Positions 2,943-14,032 of a DNA stretch of 16,687 nt are shown in pieces (positions within the stretch are counted from its first letter, which is position 1; each line of letters opens with the position of its first letter). The notes under the pieces are model-generated. The model did no database searches and was not told the DNA's origin. It saw only the letters and a program-made list of their open reading frames with translations. A program made the translations under genes and the position numbers. The stretch is from Candidatus Undinarchaeales archaeon. Its GTDB lineage: Archaea > SpSt-1190 > JASMDC01. Location of the stretch: NCBI GenBank assembly GCA_030753015.1, contig JASMDC010000061.1, positions 1-16,687 on the forward strand, read 5' to 3'.

Positions 2943-4202
2943 CTACTGGTTCTGGCTCCATTGCTGGAACTGGTCCGCCCACTCGCCCTGGCTTGTCGGC
3001 TCGTCGGGCGGGGGCTCGTACGAGGGCTGCTCCTCCCGTGGCTCGTTCGACCCGGTCATCGCCTTCACCCGCGTGATCAGGTCCTTGATGCGCGGCATCT
3101 CCACGCCGGCCAGCAGGATGACCACCTCGAACCGGTCATAGCTGGAGATCACGGCGTTCCCCCAGCGCACGGTGCCGCCGGCGCCATCGTTGAGCTGGCT
3201 CCCTAGCCAGCTGATGGCCTCGTGGAGCTCGGACACCTTGGGCGAGGAGGGGCCGGCGACGATGAGGGCCGCCGAGCGTGCGCTCGTGTACACCGCCTGG
3301 GTCGTCGTCCCCTGGAGCACCGCCATCTGGACCAGGTTGGTCAGGCTGGAGCGCGAGTTGCCCTCGGCGTCCACGGGCGATTCTGCCCGGCCCAGGCAGC
3401 ACAGCACTCCGTAGTCGCTGGTCTTGGCCTCGAGGATGGTGTTCTTCAGGTCCGTGGAGTCCATGACCAGGTCCTGCTCCTGTGAGATGGGCAGGCCCGA
3501 GATGGTCAGCAGCTTGATCTGCTTGAGGATCTCCCGGTTGATCTGGTCGAAGATCTCGTTGATACCCACCCGACCTCGCACCTGGGTCGGGATGCGCTCG
3601 TAGAACCACTCGTTATCGGCGATGATGAGCCCGTCCAGACGGGGCAGGAGGTTCTTCATCCCCCAGAGGGCGTTCTCCTCGTACCGGCCGCTCTCGTACC
3701 CGAAGGGCAGCAGCCCGATGCCGATTTTGACGAAGTCGTTGGGATTGACTACGTGGCGCTGGATGAACACCTCGTCGATTATGTCCGCCGCTACCGGCGA
3801 GCACCCGCATCCGGAGCCACCGCCGAGCGAGGTGACGATGAAGCAGAAGTGGGGCATGATGCCGCGGCCGAGGGTGTTGACGGTGATGGTGTTGCGGATG
3901 AGGTCGCGGTTGGCGTTGGCAATGCCCTTGCAGTACTCGGGATTGCCGCCGCACCCCTTGCCGCCGCCGATGAGGATCCGCGACTCCTCGGGGATGTGGA
4001 GGATGTTGAGGTCGCGGATATTGGTGTTCAGGGCCACCGAAGAGAAGTAATCGTCCACCCGCAGGGTGGATATGCCCATGGAGCGGGCGAAGGTCAGCAT
4101 CTGGCTGACGGTCGAGCGTTGGAACTCGGCCACGGCGTCGAGCACGCGGGTGCCCCCCTGACCCAGCCCCATTGCGAATATCTGACTTCCTGAGACGTCC
4201 AT
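2943..4202 (-). CDS. cetZ: CetZ-like tubulin/FtsZ-superfamily GTPase
   Basis: GLGQGGTRVLD (T1), ALNTN..DL, RILIG..KGCGGN (T3), SLGGGSGCG (T4 signature), GLLP..E.G.Y..NA, LDGLIIADNE, FDQINREI, VMDSTDLKNTI (T7). The C-terminal LIVAGP...VRWG...VILLAGVEMPRIKDL pattern matches CetZ rather than FtsZ1/2. Start ATG 4202 (or GTG 4211). Confidence 0.85.
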   Translation of the reverse strand: MDVSGSQIFAMGLGQGGTRVLDAVAEFQRSTVSQMLTFARSMGISTLRVDDYFSSVALNTNIRDLNILHIPEESRILIGGGKGCGGNPEYCKGIANANRDLIRNTITVNTLGRGIMPHFCFIVTSLGGGSGCGCSPVAADIIDEVFIQRHVVNPNDFVKIGIGLLPFGYESGRYEENALWGMKNLLPRLDGLIIADNEWFYERIPTQVRGRVGINEIFDQINREILKQIKLLTISGLPISQEQDLVMDSTDLKNTILEAKTSDYGVLCCLGRAESPVDAEGNSRSSLTNLVQMAVLQGTTTQAVYTSARSAALIVAGPSSPKVSELHEAISWLGSQLNDGAGGTVRWGNAVISSYDRFEVVILLAGVEMPRIKDLITRVKAMTGSNEPREEQPSYEPPPDEPTSQGEWADQFQQWSQNQ

Positions 4203-4220: not shown

Positions 4221-5216
4221 TCAGCCGAACAGGTCCTCCTCCAGCGTCTTCTTCGTGGGCGCGGCCCGCTCGCCGAAGCGGACGTCCTCGAGCTCGCCCA
4301 TTAGATCGGCCTCGAGGCTGACGGCCTTGCGACCCTCCTGTTCAGCCCCTGCACGGACCTCCATGAAATAATTATATATCTTCTGATATCGCGGCCGGAA
4401 CGTTAGGGCGAACAGCTCGTAGTCCGGAGTAGGCGCGACGAAGGTGCGCACGCTCGGGATGATACCGGGTGGCTCCTTGGGCATGCACACGTAAGAGAAC
4501 GAGTTATCGGTGATGGAGAAGTCGGAAGCGCACACGTTCTGGAGGATGGCCGTGTTCATGTCGAGGCCCTGGAGGCTTTCTGCGAACGACGGGACGCACA
4601 GTTCGCCGGTGAGGCCGTCCGAGGCCAGGTACTGGCGCATGCCGTACGTGCCGTTGAGACCCCTGAGGATGTCGAGCATGTACTGGACGAAGGTGTCCAT
4701 GCGCTCGAACGCCGTGTGCTGGTCGACCGCCTTTACTTTGCTCGTCAGTCGCTCCTCTTCGAGCACGATGACCATGTCAGCGGTCTCTTTCATGTCAACC
4801 ATCGTGGCGACGAGGTTGCGCTTGGCGGGCATGGGGTACTCCTTCATGTAGGGGAGGAGGATCACGGCACAGAGGAAGGCGTCGGGCTGGTACTGGCGGA
4901 TGCGCTCGAAGGCGTGGGCGGCCAGTGCCCCGTACTCAGTCGTGGGATTGAGCAGTGCCACGCTCATGCCATCGGTCATGTCCAGGGAGTGGTCCACCCA
5001 GTCCCGGACCAGCCCCATCTTGAAGTCGCGCTTGCTGGTATCGTCGGAGATCTCGATCTTGAGGCATTTGTTGCGGTCGAACTCCTTGAGATCACTGATG
5101 CTCGCCGAGGCCAGGGCAATGGGTGCGCGATGGCGCTCGGTGTACCGCTCGATCCACGTGGTACCGAAGGTCCCGAGCCCGATTAGGTTCACAGCACTCC
5201 CTCCACCGAATGCCAT
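4221..5216 (-). CDS. Degenerate tubulin/FtsZ-fold paralogue lacking the GGGxGxG signature (probable pseudo-GTPase)
   Basis: Colinear remnants: VNLIGLGTFG (T1), ASASISDL, AVILLPYMKE, RNLVATMVDMKETADMVIVLEEERL (cf. NA...L....D.LI..DNE) and AFERMD (cf. F..IN). The T4 position reads LNPTTEYGA. Start ATG 5216 (GGTG upstream) or 5249. Confidence 0.65.
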   Translation of the reverse strand: MAFGGGSAVNLIGLGTFGTTWIERYTERHRAPIALASASISDLKEFDRNKCLKIEISDDTSKRDFKMGLVRDWVDHSLDMTDGMSVALLNPTTEYGALAAHAFERIRQYQPDAFLCAVILLPYMKEYPMPAKRNLVATMVDMKETADMVIVLEEERLTSKVKAVDQHTAFERMDTFVQYMLDILRGLNGTYGMRQYLASDGLTGELCVPSFAESLQGLDMNTAILQNVCASDFSITDNSFSYVCMPKEPPGIIPSVRTFVAPTPDYELFALTFRPRYQKIYNYFMEVRAGAEQEGRKAVSLEADLMGELEDVRFGERAAPTKKTLEEDLFG

Positions 5217-5301
5217 TGTGACACCAGCTAGCCTTTTATGTGCATCCATTCCCGGGCGAGATGCTGGTGTACCGGACCTGGTGATGACATGTATCTGTTT
5301 A

Positions 5302-5403
5302 GATACGAGTGTAACCTAAATTAGTTACAAATGTACCCCTAAAGGGAGTATAGAAATATATTTATAGTTACAAATGTAACCTTATATTGGTTTCTGGTGT
5401 AAC
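5302..5403. repeat. Array of GTTAC-N4-GTAAC palindromes (~22-bp phase) upstream of module 3
   Basis: GATACGAGTGTAAC 5302, GTTACAAATGTACC 5324, GTTACAAATGTAAC 5367 and GTTTCTGGTGTAAC 5390, interleaved with AT-rich TATA-like tracts (5354-5366, 5382-5388). Confidence 0.75.
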
Positions 5404-5404
5404 C

Positions 5405-5803
5405 ATGCAACCCGCATCCCACCGTGCAAGGATACGCGAGAGCGTCGATGTCATCGAGGAGAGCATCACCCGTGGGCTTGTGGAGCGTCAGCGTACCATC
5501 GGCTTTCACACATCCGTGTCGGCAGTGGACATGCTGGAGCTCTACCTCCACGAGCTGCATGTCATAGATCCGGGTGCTGTCCTCAAGCACGAGTGGTTCA
5601 CTTCTGAGCGGAGGATAGCTCAGCGGGTCCCCTGGAGCTTCGAAGGAAGGGACAAGATACTCCCTCTTCTCATCAGGATCGAGTCGCGTCGCAACCTCCT
5701 CTGTTACTCCACGCCCCGCGAGGAGCAGGTCGTTGAAGAGGTGCTGGTCGCATTCCAGGAACTGAGGAAGGTGTTCAGGAGGTTCGGGATCGATGGAATC
5801 TAA
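5405..5803 (+). CDS. HEPN-like helical protein (MNT partner, putative toxin)
   Basis: RQRTIGFHTSVSAVDMLELYLH...KHEWFTS...RRNLLCY; paralogue of 1931-2335. Overlaps the MNT start. ATG at 5405. Confidence 0.68.
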   Translation: MQPASHRARIRESVDVIEESITRGLVERQRTIGFHTSVSAVDMLELYLHELHVIDPGAVLKHEWFTSERRIAQRVPWSFEGRDKILPLLIRIESRRNLLCYSTPREEQVVEEVLVAFQELRKVFRRFGIDGI

Positions 5804-6401
5804 GCTCATTGCATACGCTATGGACTTCACGTCCTTCTTCATCATGAACCTGCGCTACGTCGAGCGTGTGAGGAGGATCATCCTCTATGGGAGCGTTGCC
5901 CGGGGCTCCTCCGAGAATGGGAGCGACGTTGATCTCTTCGTCGACACGGACGAAGACCTCAGCGATGAGGTGGAGAGACTCAGGGACGAATTCTATAGGT
6001 CCGCCCGGTTCACGAAGCATTGGAGGCTCATGGGAGTGGAGAACGAGCTCCACGTTGTGACCGGGAAGCTCGACGAATGGCAGGACCTCAAGTCGGCCAT
6101 GGCGGTTCACGGGACCGTGCTCTACGGACCGTACACGGAGATGCGCTCTGGACGATTGGAGGCGATCGTCACATGGGACCCGGTTAAACCGGCCTCGTCC
6201 CGCGTATTGCTGAACAAACGGCTGTTCGGATTCAAACAGGAGGGGCGCATCTACAGCGGTCTTGTCGAACGGCTCACTGGCTCGAAGCTTGGGCCCAGAT
6301 GCATCCTTGTTCCGGCAGAACACCTTGGACGACTCATGCATGAGTTCGACCGCCTCGGACTGGTCGTGCGCGTCAGGCACATGCGTGAGCTGCCTAGCTA
6401 G
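5793..6401 (+). CDS. MNT nucleotidyltransferase with C-terminal Cas2/PaaX-like domain
   Basis: IILYGSVARGSSENGSDVDLFVD motif, GTVLYGPY, then RVLLNKRLFG...GLVERLTGSKLGPRCILVP. Confidence 0.88.
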   Translation: MESKLIAYAMDFTSFFIMNLRYVERVRRIILYGSVARGSSENGSDVDLFVDTDEDLSDEVERLRDEFYRSARFTKHWRLMGVENELHVVTGKLDEWQDLKSAMAVHGTVLYGPYTEMRSGRLEAIVTWDPVKPASSRVLLNKRLFGFKQEGRIYSGLVERLTGSKLGPRCILVPAEHLGRLMHEFDRLGLVVRVRHMRELPS

Positions 6402-6410
6402 GCATCGCAG

Positions 6411-8258
6411 TTAGAATCCCACCCACTGCCGCATGATGCGCTTCCAGATGAACTTGCGGGCATGCTCTATCAATTTGAACCTGATGGTAACGTACATCAG
6501 GCTGCCGGTCACCGAGAACAGGATGAGCAGGAACAGTGTCCGCTGGCGGAGCCGGTTCACATCCACCGCGCAAGTGCCGTCCTCCTGACGGACGTTGTCG
6601 TTCATGATCCCCTGGAACGTCCCCAGTTCTTCACACGCCTGTGGTATGCAGACGTTGCTCTCGCAGTAGAAGCCATTGATGCACCCGCAGTCGCTGCAGC
6701 ACCGTGCCCGCTCCACCTCGAGGCAGAGGGTGTCGCCGCACTTGATGTCGTACGCTCGTCGAGGCGCGCTGGTGAGGGTGCCCTCGAAGCTCATACCCTC
6801 CTTGAAGCTCATTCCGTCGGGGAGCGACATCGCCAGCCAGTCATCCCCCTGGGGGAGGCGGATGCGCCATTCGCCGGCGTTCTTCGTCCTGTTCAAGATG
6901 CTTGGAACGGTGAAAGTGACGATCTGCTCCTTGACCAGCATGCCCTCGATGGGCGTTACCTTGATATCATTGCCGTGGACCGTGCCGTTGAGCGGGGCGA
7001 GGAGGGCGGAATCCGTGGCGTTCTCCATCTGCCATTCCACCAGTGACAGCACGCCGTCGGGATTAGCGGATAGCACGTCGGCCTCGCCGTAGGCCTTCAT
7101 GTCCTCGACCTCGTGCAATCGGAGCACGGCATGGCCCGAGCCATCGGACAGGAGGCTGAGTGTGACGTTCCGCCGGGCATGCGGCGGGTGGAGCACCTCG
7201 AGCCGGTGCTGGCCCCCGCGGTACAAGCTGCCGTCCACATCCACGTTCATGACCGCCTCGTTGTGCATGATGTACTTGAGCCCGGGGGTTGCCGGAGCGC
7301 GTGTCCGGTACGCCACCACCTTGCGCTCGCCTGCGCCGAGAGTGAGGTTGACTGAGAGGATATTACCCACGCCGGGGACGTACACCGGCGCCAGCGCGCC
7401 GCCCAGGTACTCCAGACGCGGGTTCGTCGGCTCATCGAGCCGGACCTTCACGAGCTGTCCCCCCAGGTTCACGAGGGTGAAGTTGACCTGGAAGCCCTCG
7501 CCCTGGACGATCTTGTCGGGCATCGACCGGCTCATGGACAGCTTCGGGCGCTCGGACGCCCAGGTGATGAGCGAGCGGCCGATGGGGAGCTTCTCGCGGA
7601 GCACGCACAGTCTCCTTGAGCAGTTCAGGCCGGGGACCACGTGGATACCGGGGGTTTCCACATCGAACTTGAAGATGAACCACGTGAAGTCGTCGAACCG
7701 CGAGCCGTTGATCTCCAGGGCATAGGGGAATACCTCTTGGTAGACGGCCTCCTGCGGCGCGGCGGCGGTGTACACCAGGTCGTGCCGGGAGTAGGGGCCG
7801 AAGGGCAGCTCCCGGGTGTGCAGTGCCACTTTCTCCTCCCGAATCCCTGCGGCCTCCCGCGCCAGGTCAGCGCCCATGACCGAGACGTTCATGGGCCCCA
7901 GATCCTCGCTCAAGTGGTTTGCCAGCCGGATGGTGGCGGTGCGCACCACCGTGTCGTTGGGTCCGAGGACCACCTTGTAGAGCACCTCGTCCACGGTCAC
8001 GGTAGTGAGGTCCTGGGACCAGATGTCAGCACTACCCGTGTCGTTCGCCGGTGCCTCGGTGGCGTTGGCGGGGGCGTCGGTGGTGTTCGTCGGTGGCTCG
8101 GTGACGTTGGCGGGGGCGTCGGTGGTGTTCGTCGGTGGCTCGGTGACGTTGGCAGGGAGGTCAGTGGCGTTGACGTCTGCTGTCCCGTTGTCCACCTGGG
8201 CAGCTGTCAGTGACAGGAGGAGTAGGACCATCACAAGGAGTATCGTCGTGCGCGCCAT
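6411..8258 (-). CDS. Membrane-anchored surface (glyco)protein with Thr/Pro/Asn repeats, DUF11/Ig-like domain and Cys-rich module
   Basis: Signal peptide MARTTILLVMVLLLLSLTAA (ATG 8258, GGTGGTGA upstream). Many N-x-T sequons, KLSMSRS...GEGFQVNFTLVNLG...L..GERKVVAY (DUF11-like), CGDTLC...CCSDCGC...YC....C module, and a C-terminal TM TLFLLILFSVTGSLMYVTI followed by a basic tail. Confidence 0.75.
   Translation of the reverse strand: MARTTILLVMVLLLLSLTAAQVDNGTADVNATDLPANVTEPPTNTTDAPANVTEPPTNTTDAPANATEAPANDTGSADIWSQDLTTVTVDEVLYKVVLGPNDTVVRTATIRLANHLSEDLGPMNVSVMGADLAREAAGIREEKVALHTRELPFGPYSRHDLVYTAAAPQEAVYQEVFPYALEINGSRFDDFTWFIFKFDVETPGIHVVPGLNCSRRLCVLREKLPIGRSLITWASERPKLSMSRSMPDKIVQGEGFQVNFTLVNLGGQLVKVRLDEPTNPRLEYLGGALAPVYVPGVGNILSVNLTLGAGERKVVAYRTRAPATPGLKYIMHNEAVMNVDVDGSLYRGGQHRLEVLHPPHARRNVTLSLLSDGSGHAVLRLHEVEDMKAYGEADVLSANPDGVLSLVEWQMENATDSALLAPLNGTVHGNDIKVTPIEGMLVKEQIVTFTVPSILNRTKNAGEWRIRLPQGDDWLAMSLPDGMSFKEGMSFEGTLTSAPRRAYDIKCGDTLCLEVERARCCSDCGCINGFYCESNVCIPQACEELGTFQGIMNDNVRQEDGTCAVDVNRLRQRTLFLLILFSVTGSLMYVTIRFKLIEHARKFIWKRIMRQWVGF
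8063..8153 (-). repeat. 42-bp intragenic tandem repeat (2 perfect copies plus partial) encoding ANVTEPPTNTTDAP
   Basis: CGTTGGCGGGGGCGTCGGTGGTGTTCGTCGGTGGCTCGGTGA at 8063-8104 and 8105-8146, then CGTTGGC. Confidence 0.9.
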
Positions 8259-8260
8259 GA

Positions 8261-9826
8261 TCACCACCCCAGGTACCAGTAGGCCTCCTCGAACCGCTTG
8301 ACGTAATCCGTGGGCGTGTGTCGCCTGAGGTTCTTCGACTCGACCACGAACTTGAACCGCGTGATACTGCTCCCACCACCGATGCGCCATCTAACGAAGA
8401 ACAGGAACGAGGCGAAGGCGAAAGCGAACGATACTGCCATGAAGGTGCACTCGAACCCGTAGATCTCGCAAACGAGACCGGCGGGATGGAGGGTGACAGG
8501 GAAGGACTCGTTACCCGCCTCGAACCCACGGTAGTAGATTCGGCCGATGAGGTTGCATGCGAGTGGATCACGTGTAGCGGGCGTGCTCACATTGCACCGG
8601 TCGATACCGTACTCGCCCACATCGCACCGTCGGTCGAGCAACGTCTCGTTCCCCCCGCAGCGAAGGAAGAGCTCATAGGGAAGGCCCGGGTTTGTGAGAC
8701 TTGTGAACACGATTGTGCTGGCGTTCCCCTCGACGTCCTTTGTCACGGGTCGGAACTGCTCGAAACCCGGTGAGAACTCCCTCACCTCGATCTCCAGTGC
8801 CTCCTCCTGTTCGTCGCCGTCCGTGGAAAAGGTCACCAACCCCTCGTAGATGATCCTGCCCTCGTAGTCATGGAGGGGCAGGCGACCCAGGTCTAGGGGA
8901 CACGTGATCTTGTCGAGGACGTTGGTACAGAGCTGGTCCACCGAGAAGGTTTGGTTTACATAGGCCGTGTTGTTCCATGTGAGCTGGACCGAGATCGTGT
9001 TGTCCCGTCTGAGTATATCGTTCCACTTCTCGAGGGTCGTGTTGACGACCACGGGATCGTACTGGTTCACGAGCCGGGTGTAGTTGGTCAGGGTGAACAG
9101 GGGGTCTTCTGCGAACACGACCGCGAAGGGTGTCTCCAGGTAATCGACGATGCGAGCGCCCGACACTATCTCGAGGCGCGCCGTGTACCGTCCGCGCTCG
9201 TCGGGCACGTCCACGCTCACCGCGTGCCGGATGCTGCCCTGCATCTCACAGCTGAGGTCGATCGGCTGGTGGGAGCGGGCCACTACCTTCCGACCCGGTC
9301 CGAGCACGGATAGGGTCGCGTTGTAGCTCACCCCGTGCTCGGGGCGCCGGATGGTGTAGTCGAGATAGAGCTGCTCTCCAGGACCGAAGATATCCTTGGT
9401 CAGGCCCGCCTCGAGCTCGGTGTTGACGAAGAACACGGTGTGGATGTTGAAGGCGATCGACTCGGACACGGGGGATGTGACGTCGTAGGTGAAGTAGAGG
9501 GTGTGGTCGCCGGGGGTGCTGCATAGCGGGGCCTTCGTCATGATGGTGAACGCCCGCTCAATGTCCTTGCGCACCTCGAGCTTGGGCAGGCCGCCCGGAT
9601 AATCGGTCCCCCAGTGGTACCGGGCGTTCGTGCCGTTCTTCCGGTTGGCGATGCCGTACACGGGCTCGTCGATGAGACCGCGTACCGTGACCTTGTGGAC
9701 GCCCTGGTCACCGGGAAGGAGCACATGGTGGACGTTCTGCACATCGATGATGACCTGCTCGCCCGCAGAGACGCTCGCTAAGCACAGCGCGCACACGAGA
9801 ACGAGAGCAAGAAGCTTGGAAGGCAA
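8261..9826 (-). CDS. Membrane-anchored secreted protein with tandem beta-sandwich (Ig-like) domains
   Basis: Signal peptide MPSKLLALVLVCALCLASVSA (TTG start), beta-rich segments (e.g. FGPGEQLYLDYTI...GRYTARLEI), sequons, paired Cys, C-terminal TM FMAVSFAFAFASFLFFV and a ~40-aa cytoplasmic tail. Its stop lies 2 bp before the next start. Confidence 0.7.
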   Translation of the reverse strand: MPSKLLALVLVCALCLASVSAGEQVIIDVQNVHHVLLPGDQGVHKVTVRGLIDEPVYGIANRKNGTNARYHWGTDYPGGLPKLEVRKDIERAFTIMTKAPLCSTPGDHTLYFTYDVTSPVSESIAFNIHTVFFVNTELEAGLTKDIFGPGEQLYLDYTIRRPEHGVSYNATLSVLGPGRKVVARSHQPIDLSCEMQGSIRHAVSVDVPDERGRYTARLEIVSGARIVDYLETPFAVVFAEDPLFTLTNYTRLVNQYDPVVVNTTLEKWNDILRRDNTISVQLTWNNTAYVNQTFSVDQLCTNVLDKITCPLDLGRLPLHDYEGRIIYEGLVTFSTDGDEQEEALEIEVREFSPGFEQFRPVTKDVEGNASTIVFTSLTNPGLPYELFLRCGGNETLLDRRCDVGEYGIDRCNVSTPATRDPLACNLIGRIYYRGFEAGNESFPVTLHPAGLVCEIYGFECTFMAVSFAFAFASFLFFVRWRIGGGSSITRFKFVVESKNLRRHTPTDYVKRFEEAYWYLGW

Positions 9827-9860: not shown

Positions 9861-9883
9861 TCTTGCACGAAAGGAAGGCACTG

Positions 9884-11830
9884 ATGGCCACCCTGAAGCT
9901 CGACAGGAACCGGTGCACGAAGTGCGGGAAGTGCGTTGTCGCCTGTCCGAACAATGCCATCGTCATGCGGAACTTCCCGGCGTTCTGCAAGCACTGTGAG
10001 CTCAAGGCCGCACCGTGCTACCAGGCCTGTCCGCTGGGCGCCATCGCGGACGTCGGCAACGGTGTGCTCAAGGTGGACGTGAACCGCTGCGATCCCTACC
10101 AGTGCAAGAAGGAGTGCCAGAAGTGGTGCCAGTGGGACGGCGTGTTCGTGTTCGGCGACAAGGCCAAGAAGTGCGACCTGTGCTACGACTTCCAGAACCA
10201 GCCGAACTTCGTTCCCAAGTGCATCGAGGTGTGTGACGCCAAGGCCATCACCACCGACCTCATGCAGGAGGTCGTGCTCGACTACGCGGGATGGAGCGCT
10301 GAGACCATCCCCCAGGAGATCATCGCAGAGGTCCTCCAGAGCTTCACCTACGGCCAGGTCGTCAAGGTGCATGGCCAGCCGGTCCCGTACTACTACGTCA
10401 ACTCGCTGCCCCAGCTCACTGACTGGGCCCAGACCAAGCTCCTGGGTCTCACCATCAAGAAGTACATCGACACCGGCAAGGCGGACCAGGACCCCTTCTC
10501 CTCGCTGATGATGATCATGCGCAAGTCCGCCCAGTGGGTGGGCACCAGCGTGGACGAGAACCTGCTCAAGGAGCTTGCCAACATCGCTCTCATGAACACG
10601 AAGGGCTATGGGCCCTTCGACATCCTGCTTGAGGACGACCAGCTGGAGGAGGTGATGTGCATCGGCCTCGGAAAGGAGCGGCCGATGTATGTCTACCACC
10701 GCGAGTACGGGATGCTGCGTACCAACCTATTCTTCCCCGAGGAATACATGGACTTCACCACGGACCCGCCGGAGAAGAAGTCCGGCGAGGAGGTCCTGTG
10801 GAAGATCATCGAGAAGATGATCGAGCCTATGGGAGAGCGCATCGACCGCCAGCACCCCCGCGTAAACGCGCAGCTGCCGGACGGCTCCCGTCTCCATGCG
10901 TGCATCAAGCCCATGGGATTCTCCGGACCGTCGGTGACGATCCGAAAGTTCCGGGCCGCACCGTTCTCGCCCATCGACACCATCAGGTTCAACACAATCT
11001 CCCTGGAGGCCGTGGTGTATTGCTGGATCGCAATGGAGAGCGAGATCTCGATGATCGTGGCAGGCAACACCGGTTCCGGCAAGACCACCTCGCTCAACGC
11101 CTTCTCCACATTCATCCCTCCCGAGGAGCGCATCCTCATCCTCGAATCGACGCCCGAAATCAATCTGCCCCACCCGCACAAGGCACGTCTGGTCACCGTC
11201 AACAACGCGGACCCGCCCATAGGCATGCAGGACATCATCGAGGACACGCTACGTATGCGGCCCGACCGCGTGGTAGTAGGAGAGGTCCGGAGCGGTGCAG
11301 AGGCACAGGCCTTCATGAACTCGGTCCTGGCCGGTCAGGCCCGCGGCTCAATGTGCACATTCCACGCACAGGACGCCATTTCGGTCGTAAAGCGCATGAA
11401 GAACCCGCCTATGAACATCTCACCGCTCGACCTGCAGGTCCTGGACCTCATCTTCGTCCAGCGCCGCATGTCGCGGGTCGAGGGCAGCAAGCGGAAGCAG
11501 ATCCGTCGCGTCGTCGAGATCGCCGAGATCGACAAGCATCAGATGACCGACGAGGGCGTGCCGCTCATCCACACCATCTACCGCTACAATCCGGACACTG
11601 ACACCGTCGAGCGCGTGCACGCGGGGCTGTCCCCGCTGGAGGAGCGCATCTCCAAATACAACCTCTGCCTCGACGAGGGGCAATTCTGGGGCGAGGTGCA
11701 GGCCCGTACCAAGATGCTCAAGTACCTCATGGCCAACAACCTACGTGACATCAAGGTCTTCATGGACTACATCATCCGGTTCGGTACAGATCCTGCCTTC
11801 AAGCAGAGCATAATCAACATGGACATCTGA
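9884..11830 (+). CDS. Type II/IV secretion (TadA/CpaF/FlaI/VirB11-family) ATPase fused to an N-terminal four-cluster [4Fe-4S] ferredoxin domain
   Basis: N-terminus has 16 Cys in four groups: CTKCGKCVVACP, CKHC-x6-CYQACP, CDPYQCKKECQKWC, CDLC-x12-CIEVC. C-terminus has LPDGSRLHA, TIRKF, Walker A GNTGSGKTT (11063-11089), ILESTPEI, LRMRPDRVVVGEVR (Walker B) and His box TFHA. Single uninterrupted ORF. Confidence 0.92.
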   Translation: MATLKLDRNRCTKCGKCVVACPNNAIVMRNFPAFCKHCELKAAPCYQACPLGAIADVGNGVLKVDVNRCDPYQCKKECQKWCQWDGVFVFGDKAKKCDLCYDFQNQPNFVPKCIEVCDAKAITTDLMQEVVLDYAGWSAETIPQEIIAEVLQSFTYGQVVKVHGQPVPYYYVNSLPQLTDWAQTKLLGLTIKKYIDTGKADQDPFSSLMMIMRKSAQWVGTSVDENLLKELANIALMNTKGYGPFDILLEDDQLEEVMCIGLGKERPMYVYHREYGMLRTNLFFPEEYMDFTTDPPEKKSGEEVLWKIIEKMIEPMGERIDRQHPRVNAQLPDGSRLHACIKPMGFSGPSVTIRKFRAAPFSPIDTIRFNTISLEAVVYCWIAMESEISMIVAGNTGSGKTTSLNAFSTFIPPEERILILESTPEINLPHPHKARLVTVNNADPPIGMQDIIEDTLRMRPDRVVVGEVRSGAEAQAFMNSVLAGQARGSMCTFHAQDAISVVKRMKNPPMNISPLDLQVLDLIFVQRRMSRVEGSKRKQIRRVVEIAEIDKHQMTDEGVPLIHTIYRYNPDTDTVERVHAGLSPLEERISKYNLCLDEGQFWGEVQARTKMLKYLMANNLRDIKVFMDYIIRFGTDPAFKQSIINMDI

Positions 11831-11842
11831 GGACTCTATCGC

Positions 11843-13102
11843 ATGACGGACGACATGTTCTCGGTGAAGGCGGGCCACGACAGGTCCTGGAACCAGGAGG
11901 CACAGGACTGGTCCCAGACGCCCGGGCAAGCCAACCAGGGCTGGGGTGCGCCCGCCCCCGCCATGCAACAGCCCCAAAGCCATCCACCCGGGCCCATATC
12001 ACCGCCACCTGGGCCCACGCAACACGGACCTGGGCCCATGCCGCTCGGCCCCGGTCCTTCACCCATGGGAGGTGCAACGGCCCCCGTCGGTGGCGGCGAC
12101 TGGTACTCGACGTCCGTTGGTGAACAGACGCAGCAGACCACTGACGTCGAGGAGAAAGAGGCCGAGCAGCGCTCCCGGTTCAAGTTCATGGGCCCACTGC
12201 TCCTGCGCTTCGGCCCCGAGCGGATCAAGTGGTACCGCCAGGCCTGTGATGCCGTGGAATTCTTCATGTTCGCCGACGACTGGGTGCTTGTCGCCTCACT
12301 GATAGGCATCGCCGCCTTCGCTGTGGCGTTCCCTGTGCTCACCTCCCTCTCCGACGCCGCCATCATGATGGTCCTCATCCCCGTGACAGGGGGCGGTACG
12401 TTCGTCATCCTGCTCTCCTATCCCATCTTCAAGTTCGAGAACCGCAAGGACGATATCGAGACCAACCTCCCGGACGCCCTGTTCCAGATGTCGAGCAATC
12501 CGCCCCGGACCCACTTCGTGGAGCTGCTGACGGGCCTCACCAAGATCGGGTACGGAGCGCTGACCGACGAGCTGCGGGTCACGGTGAAGGAGATCGAGAA
12601 GGGCTCGTCCGTCAAGGAGGGCCTGGAGAAGCTCTCCGAGCGCAACCAGTCAAAGATCCTGGAGCGGGCCTGCTACCTACTCATCCGGGCGCAGGAGCAG
12701 GGTGTCGATATCGTCGAGGCCCTGGCCGCCCTGGCCACGGACATCAAGGAGACCAAATACCTCCTGCGTGAACAGGCCGCTTCGCTCCAGCTCCAGAAGA
12801 TCACCCTTATAGCAGCGGGCGCCGTCCTCATCCCCCTAATCCTCGGGTTCGTCGTGGGGCTGGCGCAGGCAATGGGCCAGTTCAGCGAGGACAAGGCGGA
12901 GATCATCACCGCCCAGGTCCAGACGGTGCAGCCCATCTTCCTCGGGTACGTGATCATCCACGCCCTCGAGGCGTGTCTGGCCATCGGACGCCAGGAGGGC
13001 GATATCAAGAAGAGCGTGTACTATGTTATACCGGTACTCCTGATCGCGATCATATTGTTTCAGTACGTGGCCCCTCAGGCCATGATGTTGTTCATGGGGT
13101 GA
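11843..13102 (+). CDS. TadC/GspF-family pilus platform membrane protein with Pro/Gly/Gln-rich N-terminal extension
   Basis: IETNLPDALFQMSS...GYGALTDEL...IEKGSSVKEGLEKLSERNQSKILER...G.DI.EAL..LA.DI is the T2SSF pattern. Several TM segments; directly downstream of the ATPase. Confidence 0.88.
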   Translation: MTDDMFSVKAGHDRSWNQEAQDWSQTPGQANQGWGAPAPAMQQPQSHPPGPISPPPGPTQHGPGPMPLGPGPSPMGGATAPVGGGDWYSTSVGEQTQQTTDVEEKEAEQRSRFKFMGPLLLRFGPERIKWYRQACDAVEFFMFADDWVLVASLIGIAAFAVAFPVLTSLSDAAIMMVLIPVTGGGTFVILLSYPIFKFENRKDDIETNLPDALFQMSSNPPRTHFVELLTGLTKIGYGALTDELRVTVKEIEKGSSVKEGLEKLSERNQSKILERACYLLIRAQEQGVDIVEALAALATDIKETKYLLREQAASLQLQKITLIAAGAVLIPLILGFVVGLAQAMGQFSEDKAEIITAQVQTVQPIFLGYVIIHALEACLAIGRQEGDIKKSVYYVIPVLLIAIILFQYVAPQAMMLFMG

Positions 13103-13108
13103 TTTGAG

Positions 13109-14032
13109 ATGGCGACATTCGGCGACGAGATGGAGGTGTACGAACAGGAGAGCACGTTCCGCCAGTTCTTGTTCCGTTTCAACCAGGCTTTCGCTATCTC
13201 GACCCGCATCCGGGAGAAGGACTTTAACGTGCTGTCCGTGGTCCTGCGCAAGGCGCGCATGGACTACGATCCCGGCGAGTACGTCACGCTCACCTACGTA
13301 GCGTGGCTCGCGTCGTTCCTCGGTGTGCTCCTCGTCGGAGGTATCTTCGTCATCGCGCTCGGTGACGTCGTAGGGTACACGAACATGATCGTGGGCGACG
13401 CTATCGCTGCCTTCTTCGTGAGCATGATCGTCTACTCCTACTCCAAGAGCTATCCCTACGGGGAGATCAAGGACATCGGCCTCAGGATCGAGGCGGAGCT
13501 GCCCTTCATGGTCCGGAACCTCGCCATCGAGCGCGAGATGGGCATCCCCATCAAGGACTCCTTTGAGAAGCTGGCCGAGGAGGAGGGGCTCCTGGGACAC
13601 GAATCGCGGGTCATCCTTGCCGAGATCGAGCGCGGGTACTCGGTGACCCAGGCACTGCGCGCGTCCTGCCAGCGCACTGATAGCCGGTTGTACGTGCGCA
13701 CCATGGCCCAGCTCACCCACGCCCTGGAGATAGGTACCGAGATCAAGTCGGTGCTCAACGCCATGGCAAAGGAGGCCGAGACCAACCTCCGCATCGCACT
13801 AAAAGAGTACTCGGGCAAGGTGTCCACCCTCTCCATCATGTACGTCATCGTGGCGGCCGTGGTCCCCGCCATCCTGGGTGCGGCGCTCATCCTATCGGTG
13901 CTCTTCGAGGAGGGCTCCACCCAGCTCCTCTCGGCGGACATGCTCATGATCCTTTATTGGGGCATCTTCCCCCTGATCAACTACACCATCCTGGCCATCA
14001 TGAAGCGGGGACAGCCGTACATCATGGTCTAA
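13109..14032 (+). CDS. Second TadC/GspF-family platform membrane protein
   Basis: IEAELPFMVRNLAIE..MGIP....FE...GLLGHE...IERGYSVTQAL....RTDS.L..R...QL..ALEIG T2SSF pattern, with TM segments at both ends. Confidence 0.88.
   Translation: MATFGDEMEVYEQESTFRQFLFRFNQAFAISTRIREKDFNVLSVVLRKARMDYDPGEYVTLTYVAWLASFLGVLLVGGIFVIALGDVVGYTNMIVGDAIAAFFVSMIVYSYSKSYPYGEIKDIGLRIEAELPFMVRNLAIEREMGIPIKDSFEKLAEEEGLLGHESRVILAEIERGYSVTQALRASCQRTDSRLYVRTMAQLTHALEIGTEIKSVLNAMAKEAETNLRIALKEYSGKVSTLSIMYVIVAAVVPAILGAALILSVLFEEGSTQLLSADMLMILYWGIFPLINYTILAIMKRGQPYIMV

Follow-up and report, generated by a model that had tools for sequence, protein, structure and literature searches.

The window analysed here is the whole 16,687-nt stretch of contig JASMDC010000061.1 from a Candidatus Undinarchaeales archaeon (assembly GCA_030753015.1). 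We focus on the minus-strand gene at 4221-5192, whose product we call pTub, and on its surroundings:

2943 to 4202, minus strand: CetZ-like GTPase gene, 419 aa from the ATG at 4202, which lies 18 nt beyond the stop of pTub
4221 to 5192, minus strand: pTub gene (GTG start 5192-5190, TGA stop 4223-4221) for a 323-aa protein, very probably of tubulin fold and without a GTP pocket
5199 to 5207, minus strand: Shine-Dalgarno-like GGTGGAGGG, read from the sequence and presumed to serve pTub
5193 to 6414, plus strand: 1.2-kb insertion with a two-gene cassette, not in the sister species (blastn colinearity breaks at 5191/6415)
5387 to 5803 and 5793 to 6401, plus strand: the cassette genes, encoding a 138-aa protein and a nucleotidyltransferase (Pfam NTP_transf_2), respectively
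6411 to 8258, minus strand: surface glycoprotein gene, 615 aa from M45, with a signal peptide, N-x-T/S-rich repeats and a C-terminal transmembrane helix
8261 to 9826, minus strand: gene for a second surface protein of 521 aa, which has a signal peptide, a transmembrane helix at its C-terminal end and a ~45-aa cytoplasmic tail
9863 to 11830, plus strand: divergently transcribed gene for a PilB-like ATPase with an N-terminal 4Fe-4S domain (Pfam T2SSE 4.7e-32, Fer4 1.6e-7)
11843 to 13102 and 13109 to 14032, plus strand: two genes for PilC-like platform proteins (Pfam T2SSF 2.8e-9 and 3.9e-13), downstream of the PilB-like gene

The first-pass annotation of this DNA had described pTub as an intact ORF of ~331 aa. 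The ORF is indeed intact, across 4221-5249 and with 342 aa counted from its first ATG; the protein itself is more likely 323 aa long. The GTG at 5192 is favoured over the ATG at 5216 (331 aa) because both P0003 and the sister-species orthologue start with MNLIGLG, because there is no conservation upstream of 5192 and because the Shine-Dalgarno-like element sits 6 nt upstream of this GTG. Residue numbers follow the 323-aa protein throughout. Searches of Pfam and NCBIfam gave no match to pTub: all four members of its family have 0 Pfam matches at E up to 10, the gathering threshold of PF00091 (33 bits) is not reached, and the CetZ_C domain (PF21011) is absent from the family. A phmmer search of the PDB sequences returned a chance match only (E 0.082).

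The relationship of pTub to the tubulin/FtsZ superfamily (TSF) emerges from profiles and models. A TSF HMM built without the pTub family matches the ORF among 11,736 ORFs of its own genome with an E of 1.7e-6 (26.5 bits), and the next non-TSF ORF in the same search follows at 0.086; therefore the resemblance exceeds chance. Profile-profile comparison with hhalign gave a probability of 91.5% (E 8.7e-7, 146 columns) and, in a second comparison, of 82.2% (E 1e-5, 226 columns), and BLASTP links pTub to an FtsZ-like protein at an E of 4e-8. The MSA-free model of the ESM Atlas (pTM 0.77) reaches TM scores of 0.63-0.78 to CetZ, FtsZ and tubulin clusters, with 0.72 to a CetZ cluster. The AF2 model has a pLDDT of 69.2 and a pTM of 0.74, and is circular in one respect, as its input alignment contains TSF proteins; a prediction from the family's own 4 sequences had a pLDDT of 37.7 and was discarded. 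In VIA-align the AF2 model scores Z 20.6 to BtubA, 20.6 to beta-tubulin, 20.2 to AtubA/B2, 19.9 to CetZ (3zid_B), 19.4 to 4b45_A and 17.9 to FtsZ, with 260-289 residues aligned in TSF matches, and the best non-TSF fold reaches Z 10.6. Foldseek gave FtsZ or CetZ throughout, among the matches listed. According to the AF2 model, the 323 residues comprise a tubulin fold and a tail, and the two-domain architecture of this fold (N-terminal Rossmann-like domain, core helix H7, C-terminal domain) is found in pTub. The tubulin/FtsZ fold proposed in the first-pass annotation is thus upheld by the family-free HMM, by hhalign and by both structural models, and the profile and Foldseek checks suggested there agree with it.

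The nucleotide-binding motifs tell of a loss. We located them in a MAFFT alignment of pTub with 64 TSF proteins:

5163 to 5180, minus strand: T1-loop equivalent G5-L-G-T-F-G10, with the glycines of G-x-G-x-x-G retained and the second Gly and the following Asn-Thr lost
4929 to 4949, minus strand: T4 (tubulin signature) position, where N82-P-T-T-E-Y-G88 replaces GGGTGTG
4752 to 4760, minus strand: T6 position E145-E146-E147, replacing D-N-D/E and invariant in all four family sequences, including a 63%-identical fragment
4617 to 4655, minus strand: T7/H8 region N180-D192, 5 residues shorter than in FtsZ and without N-x-D-x-x-D
4224 to 4304, minus strand: C-terminal tail L297-G323 (LMGELEDVRFGERAAPTKKTLEEDLFG), with 21 of 27 residues identical in the 63%-identical fragment P0004

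The columns of the T3 motif GAGxxP are a gap in pTub. At T4 the protein does not fit the pattern [GAS]GGTG[SAT]G, of which T85 and G88 are the sole matching residues; four of the five glycines are substituted, including one by Pro and another by Glu. The same NPTTEYG stands in all three full-length family members. The DNE of the CetZ-like neighbour (IIADNEW) corresponds to E145-E146-E147, with E146 in the place of the T6 Asn. These three losses had been noticed in the first reading of the sequence, and all of them are borne out by the alignment. Its fourth observation, the lack of a T7 D-x-x-D, needs qualification: N-x-D-x-x-D is absent and the invariant Asp (64 of 64 TSF rows) gives way to L189 (MAFFT) or T182 (hhalign), yet the second, catalytic acidic residue corresponds to D192, invariant in the family, in MAFFT and to M185 in hhalign. 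The two programs thus disagree on which residue would face the nucleotide of a partner, and since D192 matches the catalytic acidic residue in one of them, a fully dead T7 is likely, as judged from the alignments, and not proven. Other elements persist: G5, G7 and G10 of T1, the 'AF...D' of H7 (A161, F162, D166), and the conservation of T5 and H7 within the family. Conservation among the 64 TSF rows is 85% or more in 61 columns; of these, pTub retains 17 and the CetZ-like neighbour 38. The tail, which is modelled at low confidence (pLDDT 30-36), could serve as a docking peptide. We hold with high confidence that pTub is a protein of tubulin fold that has lost its GTP pocket.

The CetZ-like neighbour, by comparison, retains all T4 glycines and the T7 Asp (T1 GLGQGG, T4 GGGSGCG, T6 DNE, T7 MDSTD). 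It carries the Pfam domains Tubulin (61.4 bits, cut-off 33) and CetZ_C (44.7 bits, cut-off 21.6), its best PDB sequence matches are CetZ1 (4b46, 4.1e-16) and CetZ2 (4b45), and a CetZ-like protein record of the same 419 aa exists (P0008). The claim that pTub stands in tandem with an intact CetZ is therefore confirmed. The neighbour is a divergent CetZ, with 28-29% identity to the genome's other CetZ, and its dN/dS is 0.068.

The descent of pTub is harder to trace. There is no detectable sequence similarity between pTub and its CetZ-like neighbour by BLASTP (E 0.76) or with a 5-sequence CetZ-like HMM (E 2.2), and pTub has its strongest sequence link with an FtsZ-like family (about 335 aa) from other archaea rather than with the CetZ-likes encoded in the same genome. 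In the best tree (39 rows, with the P0004 fragment left out and the alignment rows after the first 11 thinned to every second), the pTub branch, 9.3 substitutions per site long, falls on the CetZ-like side with an SH-aLRT of 75.7 and a long-branch warning; from these sequences its grouping with CetZ-likes is weak and prone to long-branch attraction. The family comprises one genus and the metagenome fragment P0004. A scan of species genomes gave 13 pattern matches, among which the sister species was the sole relative, and a scan of metagenome contigs gave 0 relatives among 171 pattern matches. A further candidate from a search of 1.84 billion proteins, P0005, was rejected as a repetitive unrelated protein. 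Only two genomes carry the pair of pTub and CetZ-like genes, so that the synteny has little statistical weight.

One would argue that an ORF without any database family match and of very narrow distribution is a decaying pseudogene or a chance reading frame. Against this, the comparison with the sister species yields a dN/dS of 0.100 at a dS of 0.34 (61 synonymous versus 25 non-synonymous differences), inside the range of the neighbouring genes (0.068-0.224); the ORF is unbroken in the source genome and in the sister species; the 63%-identical relative retains the same motifs and tail; and the ESM Atlas and AF2 models support a fold. The dN/dS value means that the gene is not decaying: it indicates purifying selection and contradicts the neutral decay that the first-pass annotation had wished to see checked, and we consider a pseudogene or chance ORF hardly credible.

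The order of the pTub, CetZ-like and glycoprotein genes is the same in the sister species, with the 18-nt gap between pTub and the CetZ-like gene in both, and the pilB/pilC locus (9863..14032) is colinear there as well. In the sister species the TGA stop of the glycoprotein gene overlaps the ATG of pTub (ATGA), and by this sequence pTub is translationally coupled to the glycoprotein gene; in the genome studied here the insertion parts pTub from the upstream glycoprotein operon. The glycoprotein ends in a basic cytoplasmic tail of 23 aa. No Pfam family was found for it or for the second surface protein; their dN/dS values are 0.224 and 0.130, respectively. This setting, with two surface glycoproteins anchored in the membrane and with pilB/pilC nearby, had been overlooked in the earlier reading, and it changes the picture. 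Genes of the cetZ type are known to adjoin pilB/C loci that include about two envelope proteins, as far as PMC9856176 and PMC4858521 describe them. The other two CetZ-like genes of the genome also adjoin genes for signal-peptide-bearing, C-terminally anchored proteins, and do so without a pTub-type partner.

On these grounds we propose that pTub is probably a non-enzymatic partner of the CetZ-like filament protein. It would make a tubulin-type longitudinal contact with this protein; since its top face should be unable to hold GTP, and since it would offer no invariant T7 Asp to the GTP of the partner, the contact is proposed to form without turnover, and pTub would serve as a stable partner in a heterodimer or as an end-cap. 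The envelope proteins encoded with it have short cytoplasmic tails, to which pTub may link CetZ-like filaments by its own conserved tail or its surface. We assign a probability of roughly 0.45 to this explanation as a whole, namely a nucleotide-free TSF member that is kept by selection, acts as a stable heterodimer partner or end-cap and possibly ties to the envelope; the partner or cap role would be much less certain than the fold and the pocket loss. A pseudo-GTPase partner for CetZ had already been suggested from the sequence: the missing nucleotide-binding loops, the fold, the purifying selection and the intact CetZ speak for this suggestion, while the partnership itself is what we infer, for a family documented in a single genus of uncultured marine archaea. 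If D192 were a working T7 catalytic residue, the contact would stimulate hydrolysis instead of being inert, which counts against the proposal, as do the missing sequence similarity to the neighbour, the synteny seen in two genomes only and the insertion that parts pTub from the upstream operon in the genome studied here.

A different function within the envelope has to be weighed against it. pTub could be a static, nucleotide-independent scaffold or adaptor that self-associates or binds the glycoprotein tails or PilB/PilC without touching the CetZ-like protein. That the coupling in the sister species is with the glycoprotein gene and not with the CetZ-like gene fits such a scaffold, as do the short, basic glycoprotein tails facing an acidic, conserved pTub tail, and the two CetZ-like genes that manage beside anchored surface proteins without a pTub-type partner. 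In both species, however, 18 nt separate pTub from the CetZ-like start, which speaks for the other side, and the conservation of T5 and H7 in a tubulin fold is explained most simply by tubulin-type contacts; we think the scaffold unlikely. It is somewhat more doubtful that pTub is a negative regulator in the manner of ARC3, which would sequester or poison the CetZ-like protein or one of the three FtsZs against mistimed or misplaced assembly. The FtsZ-like domain of ARC3 directly inhibits Z-ring assembly, according to 10.1101/2024.01.08.574726 and PMC12232670 as far as they cover it, and a filament would end at a subunit that has neither a GTP pocket nor the invariant T7 Asp; however, pTub has no MORN or extra domain (none of the four family members has any Pfam match), and a single operon, presumably giving similar levels, suits a stoichiometric partner better than an inhibitor.

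The pocket could also have been remodelled for another ligand, for example a different nucleotide, so that pTub would not be a pseudo-enzyme. The retained T1 glycines and the base-contacting H7 Asp (D166), together with the invariance of the replacement residues at T4 and T6, speak for such a pocket. However, with T3 missing, a Pro and a Glu among the four replaced T4 glycines and a Glu for the T6 Asn, there is little room or charge complementarity for a triphosphate, and we regard this as quite improbable. The partner or end-cap role is our preferred reading. Its most far-reaching form is an archaeal filament system of one GTP-binding CetZ-like subunit and one permanently nucleotide-free subunit, which docks the filament to surface-glycoprotein tails and couples it to a type IV pilus-like envelope machine. 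We consider this form unlikely; if true, prokaryotes would have a counterpart of the asymmetric alpha/beta-tubulin dimer, pushed to an extreme.

Filaments of the superfamily are defined by GTP-driven assembly. A pocket-less subunit under selection, with its gene head-to-tail to that of an active subunit, would illustrate how filament capping, nucleation or anchoring can be achieved without extra protein families. In alpha/beta-tubulin, one interface is non-hydrolysing, since beta-tubulin lacks the catalytic T7 residue. The alpha/beta-tubulin, BtubA/B and Asgard AtubA/B systems resemble the present one in having two adjacent TSF genes, and the best model scores are to BtubA and beta-tubulin; in those pairs, however, each subunit binds GTP and retains the signature, in contrast to the pocket-less pTub. 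ARC3 of plant chloroplasts, an FtsZ-fold derivative that acts on true FtsZ instead of polymerising as a GTPase, is not known to have GTPase activity. ARC3 is eukaryotic and, as PMC12232670 outlines it, has a middle domain and MORN domains, while pTub consists of just the two domains of the tubulin fold plus a short tail. With the CetZ proteins (H. volcanii CetZ1/CetZ2, 4b46/4b45; M. thermophila CetZ, 3zid), pTub shares the two-domain fold (Z 19.9 to 3zid_B), the archaeal host and the proximity to pilB/pilC and envelope proteins, which PMC9856176 describes for some cetZ genes; it differs in lacking the T3, T4 and T6 motifs, probably a functional T7, and any Pfam Tubulin or CetZ_C match. For the unexplained association of cetZ genes with type IV pilus-like loci, pTub offers a concrete candidate.

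Some archaeal FtsZ paralogues without motifs important for FtsZ-tubulin function, with obscure roles, are already in print, to the extent that Makarova and Koonin (2010, PMC2875224) set them out, and patchy non-canonical TSF proteins appear in the list of Brown and Duggin (2023, PMC9856176). On this account pTub is a further variant of that kind, and its family differs in being invisible to Pfam, confined to one genus and encoded in a defined operon, together with a CetZ-like GTPase and envelope proteins. Ordinary annotation misses pTub for want of a Pfam or NCBIfam match, so cryptic tubulin-fold partners may be under-counted.

RNA-library contigs (X18, X19, X20; depth 1-4) overlie parts of the CetZ-like, glycoprotein, pilB/pilC and cassette genes, and those from two studies map to 3493-3807 of the CetZ-like gene; none lies on 4221-5192, at a depth too low to bear on pTub expression. 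An ESM Atlas search with the 659-aa glycoprotein left a lone 0.78 lead. The inserted cassette is paralogous to 1928-2335 plus 2347-2940 of the same window, and given the 1928-2335 paralogue of the plus-strand ORF 5387-5803, a 168-aa minus-strand ORF at 5339-5845 is probably spurious.

Our data show that pTub, the 323-aa product of the minus-strand gene at 4221-5192, is a conserved protein of the tubulin fold that lacks a GTP pocket, and that it is encoded immediately upstream of a CetZ-like GTPase, predicted to be active, in an envelope-associated operon. The ORF is uninterrupted at 4221-5249 (minus strand); the first-pass annotation, too, had called it intact. Translation could begin at the ATG proposed there (5216, 331 aa), yet a start at GTG 5192 (323 aa) is more likely, because the 95% identical database protein P0003 and the sister-species orthologue both start with MNLIGLG at this position, the DNA similarity to the sister species stops exactly at 5191, GGTGGAGGG stands 6 nt before this GTG, and the 331-aa form stored in the ESM Atlas is an annotation that carries no evidence for the start.

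Family-level searches did not reveal the fold: Pfam gave no family at E up to 10 for all four members of the pTub family (pTub, its orthologue, P0003 and the fragment P0004), NCBIfam gave none for pTub, a PDB sequence search with pTub returned a chance match only, and BLASTP found no similarity between pTub and the CetZ-like neighbour. The sensitive fold and homology tests agree with each other. In 61 genomes, weak matches besides the orthologue were found in two genomes of another family (E 3.1e-4 and 5.1e-4); both are genuine FtsZ-like proteins of roughly 330 aa carrying GGGTGTG, and pairwise BLASTP of pTub with such an FtsZ-like protein gave E 4e-8 over 84 residues (27% identity). An HMM of 65 tubulin/FtsZ superfamily (TSF) proteins, none of them from the pTub family, ranked six recognised TSF genes and then pTub (E 1.7e-6) among the 11,736 ORFs of at least 120 aa in the organism's own genome, with the following ORF at E 0.086. 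Two profile-profile comparisons with TSF gave probabilities of 91.5% (E 8.7e-7, 146 columns) and 82.2% (E 1e-5, 226 columns). The Atlas single-sequence model has pTM 0.77 and TM 0.63-0.78 to CetZ, FtsZ, tubulin and phage-tubulin clusters, and the best 10 of its named feature matches are all tubulin-clan. Given just the four family sequences, AlphaFold2 yielded no usable fold (pLDDT 37.7); a mixed 68-sequence alignment gave pLDDT 69.2 and pTM 0.74 (N-domain pLDDT 80-92, C-domain about 60-65), but this model does not count as independent of the tubulin family, whose sequences are part of the alignment. All Foldseek matches listed for it are FtsZ or CetZ (E down to 4.5e-9). Thus HMM, profile-profile, Foldseek, VIA-align and Atlas results bear out the tubulin/FtsZ fold that had been read from the sequence.

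VIA-align Z scores of the AlphaFold2 pTub model
BtubA: 20.6
Beta-tubulin: 20.6
Asgard AtubA/B2: 20.2
CetZ 3zid: 19.9
CetZ2: 19.4
FtsZ: 17.9
First unrelated fold (short-chain dehydrogenases): 10.6

The best tree places the pTub family, on a branch of 9.3 substitutions per site, on the side of the CetZ-like proteins of its own genome (SH-aLRT 75.7, with a long-branch warning). By HMM score, an FtsZ-like family of roughly 335 aa from other archaea is closest to pTub (E 5.6e-7), canonical FtsZ is second (E 0.0046) and the five CetZ-like proteins are last (E 2.2). A tandem duplication of the neighbouring gene is a possible origin of pTub. The closest sequence relative is the FtsZ-like family of L009, L010 and L011, loci with three tandem genes (roughly 330 aa, all GGGTGTG) in G034 and G057, small archaeal genomes of about 1.4 Mb. 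The organism's own genome (3.85 Mb, 98.9% complete, 5% contamination) is strikingly large beside the 15 same-class genomes searched, all of 0.6-1.2 Mb, and holds seven TSF genes: three FtsZ, three CetZ-like and pTub.

The nucleotide-pocket motifs were read on an alignment of pTub with 64 TSF proteins.

Pocket motifs, TSF consensus and pTub
T1: G-x-G-G-x-G-x-N-T; pTub G5-L-G7-T-F-G10-T-T-W, three glycines retained
Strand 2: NTD; pTub SAS
T3: GAGxxP; pTub gap
T4: GGGTGTG; pTub N82-P-T-T-E-Y-G88
T6: Asn; pTub E146, inside E145-E146-E147
H7: AF...D; retained in pTub as A161, F162, D166
T7/H8: N-x-D-x-x-D; motif absent from pTub, region 5 residues shorter

The missing T3 glycine loop, the changes of GGGxGxG to NPTTEYG and of DNE to EEE, and the lack of an evident T7 D-x-x-D motif had all been noted in the first-pass annotation, and each is seen again here. 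The T7 Asp, present in 64/64 TSF rows, is replaced by L189 (MAFFT) or T182 (hhalign), and the family-invariant D192 matches the second, catalytic acidic residue of T7 in MAFFT only. Of 61 strongly conserved TSF columns pTub retains 17, the CetZ-like neighbour 38 and the two other CetZ-like proteins of the genome 31 and 30. Judged from sequence, the pTub pocket is certainly degenerate and its T7 probably, though not certainly, dead.

The neighbour was said to be an intact CetZ, and Pfam (Tubulin 61.4 bits, CetZ_C 44.7 bits, both over cut-off), its best solved relatives (CetZ1 4b46, E 4.1e-16; CetZ2 4b45) and complete T1, T4, T6 and T7 motifs uphold this.

2943-4202, minus strand: CetZ-like GTPase gene, 18 nt downstream of pTub on the same strand

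Along the minus strand of the sister species, the genes for a 521-aa and a 659-aa protein are followed by pTub and then by the CetZ-like gene; the stop codon of the 659-aa gene and the start codon of pTub overlap in ATGA. The 521-aa and 659-aa proteins share one layout: after a signal peptide comes a large ectodomain rich in N-x-S/T, then a single C-terminal transmembrane helix and a short tail in the cytoplasm. Five tandem repeats at 21-nt spacing (8038-8163) encode the N-x-T-rich segment PANVTEPPTNTTDA of the 659-aa protein, probably a variable glycosylated stalk. The divergent genes encode two PilC-like proteins and a PilB-like ATPase that carries a 4Fe-4S domain at its N-terminus; this ferredoxin-type Fer4 motif of the PilB/T2SSE-type ATPase (9863-11830; residues 13-33, Pfam E 1.6e-7) is unusual for this ATPase family. 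Beyond the CetZ-like gene the sister species encodes a secreted protein of 937 aa and a protein of 625 aa (6633-8510 of its locus) whose N-terminus is prepilin-like, with RGQ ahead of a hydrophobic stretch. The latter has a large paralogous family in the source genome (28 matches at E up to 1e-5), at C39:40838-42712 and at least 20 other places. In Thermococcales and some Halobacteria, cetZ or FtsZ-family genes have been described next to pilB/C loci that also include pilins and about two envelope proteins (PMC9856176, PMC4858521), and the context of the pTub cluster fits these neighbourhoods. The other two CetZ-like genes (C23:46592-53645 and C117:19853-23697) adjoin genes for signal-peptide proteins with C-terminal membrane anchors, so that a module of CetZ-like and anchored surface protein seems to recur three times in the organism. 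In RNA libraries, contigs that match the window with full identity cover parts of the CetZ-like gene, in two studies, as well as parts of the glycoprotein and pilB/pilC genes.

We propose that pTub would touch the CetZ-like protein via a tubulin-type longitudinal interface; such an interface would be unable to turn over, and pTub would therefore be a stable partner or cap. It may also tie filaments to the cytoplasmic tails of the surface proteins encoded with it. One could argue instead that pTub is a stand-alone adaptor without contact to the CetZ-like protein, that its pocket was re-purposed for a ligand, or that it is an inhibitor like ARC3, the precedent of a regulator derived from FtsZ (10.1101/2024.01.08.574726, PMC12232670). 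A decaying gene is contradicted by selection: dN/dS against the sister species is 0.100 (25 non-synonymous and 61 synonymous differences, dS 0.34), similar to the CetZ-like gene (0.068), pilB (0.083) and other neighbours (0.11-0.22). Furthermore, the degenerate state is, on sequence grounds, old and stable, because P0004, a 208-aa metagenome fragment of 63% identity, still has EEE and the H7 motif, along with most of the C-domain and 21/27 tail residues.

Archaeal FtsZ paralogues without key motifs are mentioned in PMC2875224, and PMC9856176 catalogues non-canonical TSF proteins. Full-text searches on pseudo-GTPase or motif-less tubulin/FtsZ paralogues, in a library with few subscription journals, turned up no account of an archaeal operon that pairs an active with an inactive TSF member.

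The pTub family is tiny: a 5.8-billion-protein collection held two relatives among 3,244 candidates, 1.84 billion representatives held two real ones, the GTDB species genomes gave the sister species only, and a metagenome-contig scan gave none. The window DNA recurs in marine and seawater metagenomes, with at least half of the sampled words in 17 runs; the 20 metagenome rows with any part of it represent 11 studies. Some of these matches may stem from the source sample.

A 1.2-kb two-gene cassette (5193-6414) is inserted exactly at the junction of the 659-aa gene stop and the pTub start. Together with a paralogous cassette at 1928-2940, also on the plus strand, it flanks the pTub/CetZ-like pair; each encodes a protein of about 135 aa and a nucleotidyltransferase of roughly 200 aa (paralogue identities 31% and 34%), and the sister species has neither at the corresponding sites. 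Directly in front of the cassette ORF 5387-5803, two copies of a 20-nt repeat (5322-5341 and 5365-5384, 43 nt apart), containing the palindrome GTTACAAATGTAAC, lie on either side of a TATA-like, AT-rich stretch, and the arrangement looks like an operator. Three 23-nt repeats (1810-1898) precede the 1928-2940 cassette. Genes resembling toxin-antitoxin systems make up an island at the left end of the contig, which carries a third nucleotidyltransferase-like ORF (391-951) and, at 1139-1793, a small ORF with a PIN-domain gene behind it (VapBC-like).
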